The notes beneath the pieces were generated by a model that saw only the letters and a list, made by a program, of their open reading frames with translations, made no database searches and was not told where the DNA came from. Shown here piece after piece: positions 1,771 to 60,637 of a stretch of 64,000 nucleotides of DNA; the stretch's first letter is position 1, and every line of letters starts with the position of its first letter. Position numbers and translations under genes: made by a program. Source of the DNA: Escherichia phage Pollock; sequence record NC_027381.1, one strand, 5' to 3'.

Positions 1771-3005
1771 GACTCAATATGCAACAGTTTACAGCTTTCC
1801 AATATATCAAATTAGATATTGCTAACTCTTTTGGTTTAGATAAAGAACTGTTTGATGACCGTATCAAATGGTTTGAAGAAAACAAAAATAATTTAGCTAA
1901 TTTGGTAAATGATGCAGATGAACCTGCTCAATTCTACGCAGGTATGTTGGCATACCAAGATGTACTGGAAGGTAAACCAATTGGTTATTTAGTAGGTATG
2001 GATGCTACTGCATCTGGATTGCAGTGTATGGCTGCATTAACTGGCTGTAAGACTACCGCTGAAACAGTAAATCTTATTGACCCTAATTGTCGTAAAGATG
2101 CTTATACCGATGGCTATAAAGTCATGGGAGAACTACTTAATGGCAAGATTGATAAGATTGACCGTAAGGATTTGAAGGGAGCTATTATGACTCACTTCTA
2201 TGGTTCTCAAGCAAATCCTAGAAGTGTATTTGGTGAAAATACTATAGAACTACAAAAGTTCTATGAAACTGTTCAAACCATTGCTCCCGGTGCAAATATG
2301 CTACGAGATGATTTAATCAATCTCTGGCAACCAAAAGCACTTCAACATTTATGGGAATTACCAGATGGCTTTACTGCTGTCGTTAAAGTAATGACCATGA
2401 AAGAAGAAAGCTTTGAAGTAAATGAATTAAATAGTTCCTTTACTCATCGTTATTGGGTTAATGAGGGTCAGGATTTTGGTTTATCACTTGCTGCTAATGT
2501 TGTTCACTCTGTAGATGGGATGGTAGTACGTGAGATGAATCGTCGTGCTAACTACGATGAAACCAAAATACAGCGTGTATATGAGCTTCTGACTGGTTCA
2601 AACAATACAGGTATTGTGGACTATACAGTAGATGATAAACAGCTTAAGAGAGCTATTGAGCTTGCTGAAAGACATCGTTTTGTTTCTACTGTGATGATTG
2701 AGTTCATTAACCATGAGAATGTACATATGATTCCTTTATGGATTAAGAACCAACTCATCGAAATTATTGAGAAGATGTTGGCTCATAAACCATATGCATT
2801 AATTGCAATTCATGATTGCTTTAAATGCCATCCTCTGTATATGAATAACGTGCGTCAGAACTACATTGATATCTTTGCTCAGATTGCAGATAGCACAATG
2901 CTTCAAGCAATTGCATCTCAAATCTCTGGTAAACGTATTCCAGTAACTAAACTGTCTAATGACCTTTCAACATACATTCGTAAATCCAACTACATGCTTA
3001 GTTAA
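1767..3005 (+). CDS. T7-like single-subunit RNA polymerase, catalytic C-terminal-half subunit (N4 RNAPII large-subunit-like)
   Basis: RIKWFEENKNNL (cf. T7 RIKFIEENHENI), GMDATASGLQ (motif A, cf. DGSCSGIQH), IMTHFYGSQ (motif B, cf. MTLAYGSK), IAIHDCF (motif C, cf. IHDSFGT); T7 sequences recalled from memory. Confidence 0.85.
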   Translation: MRLNMQQFTAFQYIKLDIANSFGLDKELFDDRIKWFEENKNNLANLVNDADEPAQFYAGMLAYQDVLEGKPIGYLVGMDATASGLQCMAALTGCKTTAETVNLIDPNCRKDAYTDGYKVMGELLNGKIDKIDRKDLKGAIMTHFYGSQANPRSVFGENTIELQKFYETVQTIAPGANMLRDDLINLWQPKALQHLWELPDGFTAVVKVMTMKEESFEVNELNSSFTHRYWVNEGQDFGLSLAANVVHSVDGMVVREMNRRANYDETKIQRVYELLTGSNNTGIVDYTVDDKQLKRAIELAERHRFVSTVMIEFINHENVHMIPLWIKNQLIEIIEKMLAHKPYALIAIHDCFKCHPLYMNNVRQNYIDIFAQIADSTMLQAIASQISGKRIPVTKLSNDLSTYIRKSNYMLS

Positions 3006-3395: not shown

Positions 3396-3736
3396 TGATT
3401 AAAGTAGGTAATATGGTCAGAATGGTCTTTACTAAAGACCCAGAACAACATACATCCAATGTAATAATCAAAGGGTTATACATGGATAAAGCATGGGTAA
3501 TGTATGAACAGTCAGGTAAAGATGAAATTATTGATTTAGCTGACGTAAGCTTTGGCAACCCTATTCCAGAAGAACCTGCAAATCATTCTTTTGTAGCCAG
3601 AGACTATAGTGGTAATTGGCTATATTGGGACCATAAAAAAGGTTACTGGTATGAATGCAATGACCCAACACAACACGAAGAACAAGAAGTCTCTTTACCG
3701 ATTAATCAAAGCAAGCCAACTCAACCCATTTACTAA
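3395..3736 (+). CDS. hypothetical protein
   Basis: 113-aa ORF; start overlaps the upstream stop (ATGA-type). Confidence 0.4.
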   Translation: MIKVGNMVRMVFTKDPEQHTSNVIIKGLYMDKAWVMYEQSGKDEIIDLADVSFGNPIPEEPANHSFVARDYSGNWLYWDHKKGYWYECNDPTQHEEQEVSLPINQSKPTQPIY

Positions 3737-5645: not shown

Positions 5646-5667
5646 CGCACTTCGTGCGTCTCTTAGG
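5646..5667 (+). promoter_or_regulatory. recurrent motif: hairpin CGCAC-TTC-GTGCG followed by TCTCTTAGG
   Basis: second instance of the hairpin + TCTCTT(T/A)GG motif; directly followed by a terminator hairpin. Confidence 0.4.
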
Positions 5668-5690
5668 AGTCATTTTGGCTCCTTTTTATT
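5664..5690 (+). terminator. rho-independent terminator
   Basis: aggagtc-atttt-ggctcct hairpin followed by ttttatt. Confidence 0.5.
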
Positions 5691-5713
5691 AACATCTGAA
5701 AGAGGAATTTATT

Positions 5714-6163
5714 ATGGGTTTATTTGGTTTTGGTAAGAAAAAAGTTAGTCAGAAAGTAGAACAAATGCGAGCTACCGCTGGAAAGATGGAAAATAAAGAT
5801 ATCGTTGAAGCAGGTATCGCTGTAATGGTTGGTGTAGCATTTGCAGATAAATCTTGCTCTGATGAAGAAATTGAAATTCTGGAAAATATCATTGAATCTG
5901 ATGACACCTTTGCAGAATGGCGTTCTGAAACTCAGGCAATGACTAATAAATGGATAAGCAAATTCCAGAAATTCCATCGTGGTGCAATGATGGATTTGGA
6001 AAAAGAATTTAACGACCTGAAAGGAGACCCTGCTGGTCAGAAACGTGCTTTGCTGTGTGGTATTGCCGTAGCAGAAGATGATGAAGGCATGGGTGCAGAA
6101 GAAAAAGCTTTTCTTGAAAAAGTTGCAGGTTGGGCAGGCATCCGTTTGGATACTTTACTGTAA
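5714..6163 (+). CDS. TerB-like protein (tellurite-resistance TerB domain family)
   Basis: 149 aa; two-part helical architecture with acidic blocks (SDEEIEILENII ... AEDDEGMGAEEKAFLEKVAGWAGI) recognised by eye as TerB-like; not database-verified. Confidence 0.45.
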   Translation: MGLFGFGKKKVSQKVEQMRATAGKMENKDIVEAGIAVMVGVAFADKSCSDEEIEILENIIESDDTFAEWRSETQAMTNKWISKFQKFHRGAMMDLEKEFNDLKGDPAGQKRALLCGIAVAEDDEGMGAEEKAFLEKVAGWAGIRLDTLL

Positions 6164-6317
6164 ATGGCACTGAAATTACGAGGAATAATAGTAGCCGTAT
6201 TATTGTTCCTTGTAGTTGCTATCGACTTCACTAGTAAGGTGATGTCGATACTAGCAGACGGTGTATTAGTTGCTGCTGTAATAGCAATAATGTGGCCTGT
6301 ATTTAAAAGGACTAACA

Positions 6318-6650
6318 ATGAGTAAACCAAAAATTGAAATTGAAAAGATTGATGCTTTACGTAATGCATTTAATGCAATGTACGTATCTCATCAAGAAAT
6401 ATCTGTAGGTGATATTGTTATTCTACACCCTTCAGTTCCGGGAATTTTTAAAGTTCCTACTGAAGAACGTCCGGGTATCGTTACTAAATTTCTACCAAAA
6501 CCAATGTATGCGTATGAAATGGCTGACGATACACGTCCAAGCCATCCTTCTTCAGCAATACAATATGATTGTGTAATCAATATCATTAATGACGATGGTG
6601 AAATTGTTCCATTCTTAATGGATTCTCGTCGCCTCCTTAAAGTTAATTAA
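6318..6650 (+). CDS. hypothetical protein
   Basis: 110-aa ORF followed by terminator. Confidence 0.4.
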   Translation: MSKPKIEIEKIDALRNAFNAMYVSHQEISVGDIVILHPSVPGIFKVPTEERPGIVTKFLPKPMYAYEMADDTRPSHPSSAIQYDCVINIINDDGEIVPFLMDSRRLLKVN

Positions 6651-6655
6651 TCTAT

Positions 6656-6690
6656 AAGCCTACTTAGTAGTAGGCTTTCATTTTTCATCT
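6656..6690 (+). terminator. rho-independent terminator
   Basis: aagcctac-ttagta-gtaggctt hairpin followed by tcatttttcat. Confidence 0.55.
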
Positions 6691-6704: not shown

Positions 6705-6788
6705 ATGCGTCCTACAGCTATTAAAAAAGCTATTGAAAGAGCTTTTGCAGCAGGACTTGTTCCTTTTATTAAAGGTAGTCCGGGTATT
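6705..6788 (+). CDS. MoxR-like AAA+ ATPase, exon 1 (ends inside Walker A: ...FIKGSPGI)
   Basis: ATG 6705; reading frame stops immediately after GSPGI (TGA at 6789); the GKS that completes the P-loop is at 7179. Confidence 0.55.
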
Positions 6789-7178
6789 TGATTTTACAAG
6801 ATACCCTAAGCAGTGATGCTTAGTAAAAAATCCCTTGAATTGCTGGAAACCCTTAAAGCTGAATTAACTACTGCGAGTTGAAAAACAAAGCCAATGTTTA
6901 AAAATAATTCAGATATGTAGGCAATCAGCAGCCAAGCTCCTAAGGTTTAGGATATTAAGCTATGGAGAAGGTTCAACGACTAGGCGTAAGCCGTACACTC
7001 AAGTGAGTGGAAGTGGGGGACTCTTTACAAACTTACCACCATGGAATACCTTTTGTATTTGCAAAGAAAGGTCTATGTCGTAAATGTAGTAAAGATGAAG
7101 ATATAGTCTCGTCTTATGTGAAAGCATAAGCTGTTTAATAAACAGAGGGTAGCTTAACGAACTACCCTGAAGATTACG
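6789..7178 (+). ncRNA. group I intron 1 (ORF-less), interrupting the AAA ATPase Walker A
   Basis: ~390 nt between exon end (last nt T) and exon 2 (preceded by G); contains AACGACTAGGCG...CTCAAGTGAGTGGAAG core-like element shared with intron 2; exact boundaries approximate. Confidence 0.5.
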
Positions 7179-7421
7179 GGTAAATCTGCAATTATTCGTC
7201 AAATTGCAAAAGAAGCTAAATTATTGGTTATTGACCTTCGTTTAGGTCAATGTGACCCAACTGATTTATTGGGATTTCCAAATATTGAGAATGGACGGTC
7301 TGTATATCATCCACCAAAAGATATTCCAATTATTGGGGATGAAATTCCTAAAGGATATAACGGTTGGCTGTTATTCCTTGATGAAATGAATACAGCACCT
7401 AAAGCTGTTCAGGCTGCTGCT
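7179..7421 (+). CDS. MoxR-like AAA+ ATPase, exon 2 (GKSAIIRQIAKEAKLLVIDLRLGQ ... Walker B LLFLDEMN)
   Basis: no start codon or RBS of its own; in-frame stop at 7155 upstream; ends with stop directly after AVQAAA. Confidence 0.55.
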
Positions 7422-8265
7422 TAAATTAATAGGCATTTATGGGGGAAACCTCATATCTAAAGCTACTTAAAACGGGGAACTCTTAGTAGTGTATATACAC
7501 TAAAGACAATCCGTTGCTAAATAGGAATTAAGATGCAAGAAGTTTGGAAAGCTATTCCCGGATATGAGAAAGAATATGAAATTTCTACTCATGGACGGAT
7601 TAAGAGTTTAGATAGAGTCGTTCCTTGTAAACATGGCACTCGCCTTGTTAAAGGAAAATTATTAAAAACCTATATTAATCGAAAAGGGTATTTAATTGTT
7701 ACTTTATCTAAAGAAAATAAACTGAAAACATATACCGTACATCAGTTAGTTGCTCTTACATTTATTCCAAATTTCATTAAAGGCACAGAAATTAATCATA
7801 AAGACGGTAATAAATCCAATCCAGTATTAGATAATTTAGAAATTAGCAACCCTAGCCATAACCAGTTACATGCTATAGCTACAGGTCTTAAAGCAAAGGT
7901 TGGTAAGAGTAAATACCACAATGTAACTTACATTAAAAACCCACGGGCTAAGAAAAAGTGGGCTGCAAGTATAAGTTATAATGGGGAAAAATCTTTTGGA
8001 TGGAAAACATTTATGACAGAAGAAGAAGCTGCAAGATATGTAGATAAACTTCTTGATGAAATAGGTGATACTTCCCGTTTAAGAAATTTCTAATTAATTC
8101 CTTAAATGCCCAACGACTAGTCGAAAGACGTAGGCTCAAGTGAGTCGAAAAAGTAGCTCCCCAAACAAGTAAAGTTGTGGGGATTGATATAGTCTGCTCT
8201 ATATAGAAATATATAGCTGGATTAATTATCCGGGTAATGATTAACGACCATTACTGAACATAAGG
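7422..8265 (+). mobile_element. group I intron 2 carrying an HNH homing endonuclease ORF (td-like)
   Basis: 7462-7530 CTTAAAACGGGGAACTCTTAGTAG...AGACAATCCGTTGCTAAATAGG closely matches the phage T4 td intron core as recalled; ORF begins right after this element; 3' part has CAACGACTAGTCG...CTCAAGTGAGTCG. Confidence 0.65.
7533..8093 (+). CDS. HNH homing endonuclease (intron-encoded)
   Basis: 186 aa; N-terminal WKAIPGYEKEYEISTHGRIKS, HNH core NHKDGNKSNPVLDNLEISNPSHNQLH, C-terminal AP2-like DNA-binding region. Confidence 0.8.
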   Translation: MQEVWKAIPGYEKEYEISTHGRIKSLDRVVPCKHGTRLVKGKLLKTYINRKGYLIVTLSKENKLKTYTVHQLVALTFIPNFIKGTEINHKDGNKSNPVLDNLEISNPSHNQLHAIATGLKAKVGKSKYHNVTYIKNPRAKKKWAASISYNGEKSFGWKTFMTEEEAARYVDKLLDEIGDTSRLRNF

Positions 8266-8955
8266 TATAAACTGTTGGACCGTATGGTAGGACAAACCAA
8301 ATTACATCCTAGTGTTTATATTGCTGCTGCTGGTAACAAAGATACAGATGGAGCAATTACTACTACTATGAGTAGTGCAACTCTATCTCGTATTGTTAGT
8401 ATGGAACTAGAAGTTAACTTTAATGATTGGGCTGTATGGGCATTAGCCAATAACATTGACCATCGCATCATGGGATATCTTCAGTTCAAACCAGAAGCAT
8501 TCCATAAATTTGACCCTAAAAATCTTAAAGAACCTTTTCCATGCCCACGTACATGGGAGTTCATTAACCGTGCTATTAATGGATTAGATGTATCTTTAAA
8601 TTCTGATTTGGGTTTATTGTCTGGAATTATTGGTAATGGCACTGCTCGTGAATTTATTGAGTATTGTGCTATCTATGGTGAGATTGCTTCCTTTGAAGAA
8701 ATTATGTCTAATCCAGAAAGCATTGTCATCAAAGACAGACCAGACATTAAGTATGCATATGCTGGTTTTGTAGCTTCTCGCATTACCCCTGAAAATGCAT
8801 CTCAATTAATGAAATTCATTAATCGACTGCCCGTTGAATTTCAGATTGTAACTTTGAGTAATGCTTTTAAAGCTAAACCTCTCATTTCTCAAGTTCCAGA
8901 AATAATGGAATGGATTACTCGTTATGCCAACGAGTCAGGTGAAGGGATGCTCTAA
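8266..8955 (+). CDS. MoxR-like AAA+ ATPase, exon 3 (C-terminal part)
   Basis: AVQAAA | (YKL)LDRMVGQTKLHPSVYIAAAGN continues the AAA fold after Walker B; ORF track start 8275 is a TTG; 5' boundary approximate. Confidence 0.5.
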   Translation, partial: YKLLDRMVGQTKLHPSVYIAAAGNKDTDGAITTTMSSATLSRIVSMELEVNFNDWAVWALANNIDHRIMGYLQFKPEAFHKFDPKNLKEPFPCPRTWEFINRAINGLDVSLNSDLGLLSGIIGNGTAREFIEYCAIYGEIASFEEIMSNPESIVIKDRPDIKYAYAGFVASRITPENASQLMKFINRLPVEFQIVTLSNAFKAKPLISQVPEIMEWITRYANESGEGML

Positions 8956-60307: not shown

Positions 60308-60384
60308 CGGAATGTAGCACAGCCGGGTAGTGCATCTGCTTTGGGAGCAGAGGGTCATAGGTTCAAATCCTATCATTCCGACCA
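60308..60384 (+). tRNA. tRNA-Pro (anticodon UGG)
   Basis: hand-folded cloverleaf: acceptor CGGAATG/CATTCCG, anticodon loop TTTGGGA, T-loop TTCAAAT, encoded CCA. Confidence 0.75.
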
Positions 60385-60389
60385 AATTA

Positions 60390-60467
60390 TTCCCGTTTAG
60401 CTTAATTGGTTAAAGCACCCGACTCATAATCGGATGATTACAGGTTCGAATCCTGTCACGGGAACCA
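60390..60467 (+). tRNA. tRNA-Met or Ile2 (anticodon CAU)
   Basis: hand-folded: anticodon loop CTCATAA, T-arm ACAGG-TTCGAAT-CCTGT, encoded CCA; exact 5' end ambiguous by 1 nt. Confidence 0.65.
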
Positions 60468-60471
60468 AAAT

Positions 60472-60547
60472 GCATCCTTAGCTCAATGGATAGAGCAGTA
60501 GCCTTCTAAGCTATTGGTTACAGGTTCGAATCCTGTAGGATGCACCA
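60472..60547 (+). tRNA. tRNA-Arg (anticodon UCU)
   Basis: hand-folded: acceptor GCATCCT/AGGATGC, anticodon loop CTTCTAA, T-loop TTCGAAT, encoded CCA. Confidence 0.75.
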
Positions 60548-60552
60548 TATTA

Positions 60553-60637
60553 GGGAGTATGGTGAAATTGGTAAACACAAGGGATTTAAAATCCCTCGCT
60601 TAATTGCTTACGAGTTCGAGTCTCGTTACTCCCACCA
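60553..60637 (+). tRNA. tRNA-Leu (anticodon UAA)
   Basis: hand-folded: acceptor GGGAGTA/TACTCCC, anticodon loop TTTAAAA, long variable arm, T-loop TTCGAGT, encoded CCA. Confidence 0.75.

Follow-up and report, generated by a model that had tools for sequence, protein, structure and literature searches.

Layout of the TerB locus

The locus lies in a 64,000-nucleotide stretch of phage DNA, referred to here as the window, and is centred on an open reading frame (ORF) of 149 codons with an ATG start, which we assign to the TerB family (Table 1). A GAGG ribosome-binding core can be read from the sequence at 5702-5705, 8 nt 5' of this ATG. The stop codon of the TerB gene directly abuts the start codon of a TciB-like ORF (gap 0 nt), which in turn runs into a gene of the phage backbone, ORF 6318..6650. 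The three genes are bracketed as one unit by terminator-like hairpins (5665-5683 and 6656-6677), and the backbone ORF is probably co-transcribed with the other two. Around them lie genes for a dUTPase, a DUF5405 protein, proteins of unknown kind and a MoxR-like ATPase.

Table 1 Features of the TerB locus, with positions in the window.
Feature	Position	Strand	Evidence or remark
Short hairpin CGCAC-TTC-GTGCG in the intergenic leader 5' of TerB	5646..5658	+	RNA fold, intergenic alignment
Terminator-like G+C hairpin followed by a T run	5665..5688	+	Terminator scan; fold z-score -2.3
Ribosome-binding region GAAAGAGGAA within the conserved block CATCTGAAAGAGG	5698..5707	+	Sequence, alignment
TerB-family protein (TciA-like), 149 aa, soluble, acidic, all-helical, paired D...E motifs	5714..6163	+	
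TciB-like DUF3927 miniprotein, 53 aa	6164..6325	+	Pfam PF13064 E 1e-14, PHROG 1470 E 4e-24
Backbone gene, 110 aa, PHROG 22456	6318..6650	+	Overlaps the TciB stop by 8 nt
Terminator-like hairpin closing the three-gene unit	6656..6677	+	Terminator scan

The sequence-only reading of this DNA had taken the carrier for a lytic phage, and this holds: the window belongs to an N4-like schitovirus with a 3537-aa ORF of the size of a virion RNA polymerase. Over ~77% of its first 25 kb, the window is ~83% identical in DNA to the Salmonella phages FSL SP-058 (SP-058 below) and vB_SenP_UTK0001 (UTK0001), both members of the genus Ithacavirus (Humphriesvirinae, Schitoviridae). Between positions 3000 and 9000 of the window, sigma-70-like promoters were strongly depleted (4 vs 23.1 ± 3.7 in shuffled sequences) and terminator-like hairpins, mostly intergenic and on the + strand, were enriched (12 vs 3.7), both of which are consistent with transcription by phage-encoded polymerases. 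The TerB orthologue of SP-058 is located ~4.4 kb 3' of two RNAPII-subunit genes, amid replication genes, and from the synteny with N4 (PMC4496689) we infer that the TerB genes would be of the middle class, read by the middle RNA polymerase of the phage. Elsewhere in the window, four tRNA genes (Pro-TGG, Met-CAT, Arg-TCT and Leu-TAA) are tightly clustered at 60308-60637 (+).

Two hairpins precede the TerB gene in its leader. The one followed by a T run (5665..5688) is kept in all five phages aligned and is predicted to end the upstream transcript or to attenuate read-through into the TerB unit. The shorter one (5646..5658), with a 5-bp stem and a 3-nt loop, is kept in Klebsiella phage Pylas, which represents a sister genus, and is deleted in SP-058, Salmonella phage FSL SP-076 (SP-076) and Shigella phage B2. 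On the template strand its loop reads GAA, a resemblance to N4-type promoter hairpins, and it is located far from the left genome end, to which the N4 hairpin promoters are confined.

The neighbouring gene for the MoxR-like AAA ATPase (6705-8952, +) is divided into three exons, 6705-6788, 7179-7421 and 8266-8952, with the intact 338-aa gene of SP-058 as the reference; the SP-058 and SP-076 genes are both annotated as single uninterrupted coding sequences. The Walker A motif (GSPGI|GKS) is split by the first of the two introns, a group I intron without an ORF that exceeded the gathering score of Rfam RF00028 (101 bits, 6778-7130). The second intron (7422-8265) gave two sub-threshold group I matches around an HNH/NUMOD4 homing-endonuclease ORF (7533..8093). 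The ATPase gene of Pylas carries one annotated HNH intron, and two introns within one ATPase gene look unusual for this group.

Assignment of the product to the TerB family

By eye, the 149-aa product had been given the length and the two-part acidic helical pattern of TerB-family proteins, and the profile searches bear out this family identity. The Pfam TerB profile (PF05099) matched residues 33-143 significantly, scoring 32.4 bits where the curated cut-off is 24.4 (E 1.3e-7), and the same profile was matched by 72 of the 74 TerB homologues that we aligned. PHROG 632, labelled 'tellurite resistance', matched with E 2e-43. The solved structure of Klebsiella TerB (2JXU, 153 aa) aligned with the phage protein nearly end to end, its residues 10-142 with residues 10-141 (E 8e-6), and the E value reached 7e-30 when 2JXU was compared with a family profile built from the homologues. 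When 1.8 billion representatives were searched exhaustively, 81 relatives were found, nearly all of them stand-alone proteins of 140-155 aa. We thus identify 5714..6163, from these profile matches, as the gene of a full-length TerB-family protein (COG3793).

The predicted structure is all-helical. An AlphaFold2 model built from the 74-sequence alignment has six helices, a mean pLDDT of 89.4 and a pTM of 0.81, with the uncertainty confined to the first ~25 residues. A Foldseek search of the PDB returned the TerB-like entries 2H5N and 2OU3 as the top matches with probabilities of 1.0 and 0.9, at weak E values of 0.05-0.6 and TM scores of 0.46-0.54; 2JXU itself was absent among the PDB matches listed. 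The product is acidic (pI 4.8; 28 D+E vs 20 K+R), and hydropathy analysis gave no transmembrane segment. The two-part acidic pattern first seen by eye is borne out: each half is a helix-loop-helix unit in which an Asp is followed by a Glu at a distance of seven residues, D45/E52 in one and D123/E130 in the other. In the 74-member alignment, the column of D45 contains Asp in 66 of 74 sequences and that of E52 contains Glu in 72 of 74, and D123 and E130 are conserved in 52 of the 63 non-gap rows and in 73 of 74, respectively. The Glu columns of the AD[G]x6E motifs are thus at least 97% conserved, and the Gly that follows the Asp is replaced in this clade, by K46 and E124. Comparison with the orthologue of Shigella phage B2 gave a dN/dS of 0.036 at a dS of 0.67, implying that strong purifying selection acts on the ORF and that it is no chance ORF but a working gene.

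Two further observations concern sequence motifs. A Cys at +3 from the Asp of the first motif ('ADxxC', C48), which this TerB clade has, is present in 20 of the 74 members and co-occurs above expectation with a Cys in helix 5 (C115; Fisher p = 0.02, uncorrected for relatedness); in the phage protein, C48 and C115 may provide an added thiol ligand. We also considered the N-terminal motif MGLFGFGKK as a mark of the TerB proteins that are paired with TciB and rejected it, because TerC-linked and classical TerB proteins have it too.

A TciB-like gene adjoins TerB

The TerB gene does not stand alone, a point that the sequence-only reading had missed: a TciB-like gene directly adjoins it. Residues 7-46 of the TciB-like miniprotein are hydrophobic and, from their hydropathy, would make up either a single long membrane helix or two short ones, and the alignment revealed a conserved polar stripe, D21-S28-D32. 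From their homology and order, we identify 5714..6163 and 6164..6325 as a bicistronic accessory cassette of the tciA-tciB type of phage P1.

The pairing is widespread. A TciB-like ORF lies 3' of TerB in 8 of 11 annotated phage loci, which took in N4-like, P1, lambdoid, jumbo and Pantoea phages; one of these ORFs is unannotated. Among distant homologues from metagenomes, the same was found in 6 of 8 distinct contexts, where the gene finder had twice left the ORF uncalled. In IMG/VR, 78 of 80 loci have it, a figure that is phylogenetically biased as the set consists mostly of P1-like near-duplicates; of the remaining two, one is truncated by the locus end. The junctions between the two genes measure 0, -1, -4 or -8 nt across phages, suggesting translational coupling. 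Where TciB is missing, other arrangements are seen: in two loci TerD-TerC lies upstream of TerB, in Pseudomonas phage AF a different ORF with one transmembrane segment overlaps the TerB stop, and in Pseudomonas phage PMBT3 TerB has neither TciB nor another such neighbour. A membrane protein is thus nearly always found beside a phage TerB gene.

The partner gene is systematically under-annotated. The locus from KY271399 contains a TciB/DUF3927-like ORF that overlaps the TerB stop and is absent from the deposited annotation (locus coordinates 2429-2584), and two further uncalled ORFs of this kind overlap a TerB stop at locus coordinates 3440-3613 and 1803-1970. DUF3927 is hardly mentioned in the literature that we searched, and the genome papers (PMC3728262 and the PMBT3 paper) describe a lone TerB gene, TciB having been overlooked.

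TciB also occurs apart from TerB. In phage 434 (locus 1112-2344), a DUF3927/TciB gene is located 3' of Q, between genes for predicted membrane proteins of 247 and 62 aa; no TerB was found in this locus, and the 247-aa neighbour has no similarity to the TerB profile. This TerB-less TciB weakens the idea that TciB is an obligate partner of TerB. We also co-folded the two proteins in AlphaFold2 as a TerB-(GGGGS)5-TciB fusion with a paired alignment. The pTM fell from 0.81 to 0.60 in this crude test, which has no inter-chain error map, TciB was modelled as one long helix, and the N-terminus of TerB was still disordered; for a direct TerB-TciB complex, the fused model is uninformative or at best weakly negative.

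Insertion of the cassette and exchange of TerB

Comparison with Pylas indicates how the cassette entered the genome. Pylas shares the gene order of dUTPase, DUF5405 protein, an unknown and then the ATPase, and its gp33 directly adjoins gp34, with neither TerB nor TciB between them. Pylas gp34 is 58% identical to ORF 6318..6650, and the gp33-gp34 spacer is homologous to the leader 5' of TerB, including the two hairpins and the block CATCTGAAAGAGG, which in Pylas serves the homologue of ORF 6318..6650. As the same flanks occur there without TerB and TciB, the pair is a clean two-gene insertion of about 5714-6317 into a conserved transcription unit. By the alignment, it separates an older ribosome-binding site from the backbone start codon that had followed it. 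ORF 6318..6650 is rejected as a third, tciC-like cassette gene by its homologue in the cassette-less Pylas, and a tblastn search of the window with P1 TciC gave no match. A search of E. coli genomes for a source of the cassette yielded only two prophages, in which the TciB part was weakly similar in DNA.

Within the ithacaviruses, TciB is 76-100% identical and TerB occurs in two types that are 35% identical. The TerB of SP-076 is 35% identical to the type of the window and SP-058, and its closest relative, at 66% identity, is the TerB of a lambdoid Klebsiella prophage; the TciB proteins of SP-076 and SP-058 are 94% identical, and TciB identity across the swap is 77-94%. The megablast match between SP-076 and the window begins at the TerB/TciB boundary. 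These identities indicate that the TerB allele has been exchanged on a conserved TciB in SP-076 (locus 2001-2591) relative to the window (5714-6325). In P1-like elements, tciABC has been described as hypervariable (PMC9603915). Together, the swap and this hypervariability resemble the behaviour of conflict genes, which would be circumstantial evidence for such a role.

The sequence-only reading had noted that TerB domains are better known from bacterial loci linked to stress and defence. Phage copies are common and already annotated, with homologues in 53 phage records, 484 plasmid records (mostly non-mobilizable) and more than 500 IMG/VR stretches. The size and the P1-type annotation of the plasmid records suggest that they may be phage-plasmids. 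TerB of an Ithacavirus was published in 2013 (PMC3728262), and RefSeq and PHROGs label both TerB and TciB, so this kind of gene is already known. Our additions are modest: the finding that the pairing is almost universal and often unannotated, the exact point of insertion by comparison with Pylas, and the swap of TerB on a constant TciB.

Possible functions of the TerB-TciB pair

It is reasonable to regard the phage TerB as a putative host-manipulation factor, as had been suggested from the sequence. Because a membrane protein nearly always adjoins the phage TerB genes, we favour a membrane-associated TerB-TciB module, which by analogy with ter operons might protect the inner membrane of the infected cell against rival phages, colicins or pore-forming suicide defences; we put this forward tentatively, as plausible and somewhat short of probable. 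In this proposal, TerB would be a cytoplasmic acidic helical bundle that binds a ligand or metal and works on the cytoplasmic side of the inner membrane, and TciB would be its membrane partner, in the role that the multi-pass TerC has in classical ter operons. The two together would condition the inner membrane against pore-forming or DNA-translocating attack, and superinfecting phages and colicins would then be excluded, which corresponds to the Phi and PacB phenotypes that the bacterial ter operon confers, and the cell would be left to the resident phage.

Several published results agree with this proposal. Bacteria with a ter operon inhibit phages and resist pore-forming colicins, and TerC and TerB are reported to form a membrane complex (PMC12054061). 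The defence systems Bunzi, Shango and Dionysus contain TerB, which has been described as associated with membranes, and superinfection exclusion has been proposed for phage Ter genes (PMC7824862). Against exclusion, P1 can form plaques without tciA, tciB or tciC (PMC10695390), and a transposon study of the ter operon, as quoted in PMC12054061, links phage inhibition to terZ, terC, terD and terA, with terB absent from this list. The occurrence of TciB without TerB in phage 434 and of TerB without TciB in PMBT3 also speaks against it, and the co-fold, with its pTM of 0.60, lends a direct complex no support.

A stronger form of the proposal is that TerB and TciB are a minimal, self-sufficient Ter membrane machinery, in which a pore-lining or pore-blocking helix would be governed by a cytoplasmic TerB sensor. 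We consider this form rather unlikely. If it were true, many kinds of phages would use the machinery to shut the inner membrane to rivals, colicins or suicide pores, and the TerB swap between SP-076 and SP-058 or the window would mark an ongoing arms race over TerB sensing.

The pair could instead serve in counter-defence, with TerB-TciB shielding the membrane from pore-forming or depolarising abortive-infection effectors or jamming the TerB-domain membrane sensors of host defence systems and so letting the phage complete its cycle. Bunzi, Shango and Dionysus contain TerB domains, with membrane surveillance proposed there, the cassette is found in both virulent and temperate phages, and the replacement of TerB with TciB kept, as well as the hypervariable region of the P1-like elements, is as expected for arms-race genes. 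However, a PADLOC search with TerB and TciB gave a best E of 0.027, to an unrelated model, and left the TerB-bearing defence models unmatched, so that a specific resemblance to a host sensor that could be mimicked is absent, and our literature searches yielded zero experimental reports of anti-defence activity. On balance we doubt that this is the function.

The position of the cassette in lambdoid prophages, directly between the late antiterminator gene Q and the holin/endolysin genes, suggests late expression, and a lysis-related role fits this position at least as well as exclusion does. Here, a TciB oligomer would act as a small channel or holin modulator in membrane energetics or the timing of lysis, and TerB would be its ion- or ligand-sensing regulator. 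TciB has a 40-residue hydrophobic stretch, and D21, S28 and D32, spaced i, i+7 and i+11, would share one helical face, as in pore-lining helices; moreover, TciB of phage 434 accompanies other membrane proteins without TerB. However, lysis genes were neither annotated nor detected beside the cassette in the window, P1 and Pantoea phage LIET2, holin and antiholin families gave no match, and the idea of a channel comes from the sequence pattern alone. We consider this role improbable.

Tellurite or metal resistance given to the host by the phage TerB, as the family name and database annotation imply and as the induction of the ter operon by Zn, Mn and Te would allow (PMC12054061), is very unlikely because the window lacks TerC, TerD and other ter genes by tblastn with phage TerC and TerD and by neighbour annotation, TerC-TerD being the minimal resistance unit (PMC12054061), because a lytic phage kills its host within a single cycle, and because the authors of the SP-058/SP-076 (PMC3728262) and PMBT3 genome papers likewise doubted such a role.

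The role of the TerB domain has been puzzling for ~30 years, though the domain is widespread, with occurrences in ter operons, DjlA and, as recognised lately, several anti-phage systems. This TerB gene is nothing new in kind. The two-gene phage form, which spans ~600 bp, is dispensable and occurs in phages that are easy to handle, such as P1 and N4-like phages, offers the simplest setting for finding that role. 'Tellurite resistance' labels on the genomes of therapeutic phages are probably misleading, and the TciB gene next to TerB often goes unannotated.

Comparison with known systems

The TerB domain is common to the phage protein and to Bunzi (BnzA), Shango (SngA) and Dionysus (DinB), and for all of them an action at the cytoplasmic membrane has been proposed. 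Those systems differ in being host-encoded and multi-gene or multidomain, with helicase, ATPase or pore-forming partners, and no partner of these types was seen among the cassette neighbours examined. Compared with TerB of the Klebsiella pneumoniae terZABCDE operon (2JXU), the phage protein has a similar length, a co-linear alignment and the same paired D...E motifs. However, the two sequences are only distantly similar (E 8e-6 for the single sequence), both 'DG' motifs have another residue in place of Gly (K46, E124), and the partners are different: TerC, TerD, TerZ, TerA and TerE for Klebsiella TerB, and the 53-aa TciB for the phage TerB.

The Ithacavirus genomes (SP-058, Shigella B2 and UTK0001) carry the cassette at the same position, with TerB 73-95% and TciB 76% identical, and the window differs from them in the extra leader hairpin that it has in common with Pylas. 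The P1 proteins are more distant (TerB 30% and TciB 41% identical), and P1 is a temperate phage-plasmid, whereas the window comes from a virulent N4-like phage with the cassette in a phage-RNA-polymerase block and tciC not found. The P1 tciA-tciB(-tciC) genes are nevertheless alike in plan, with a ~145-aa TerB homologue followed without a gap by a ~54-aa DUF3927 miniprotein, and they too are accessory and variable.
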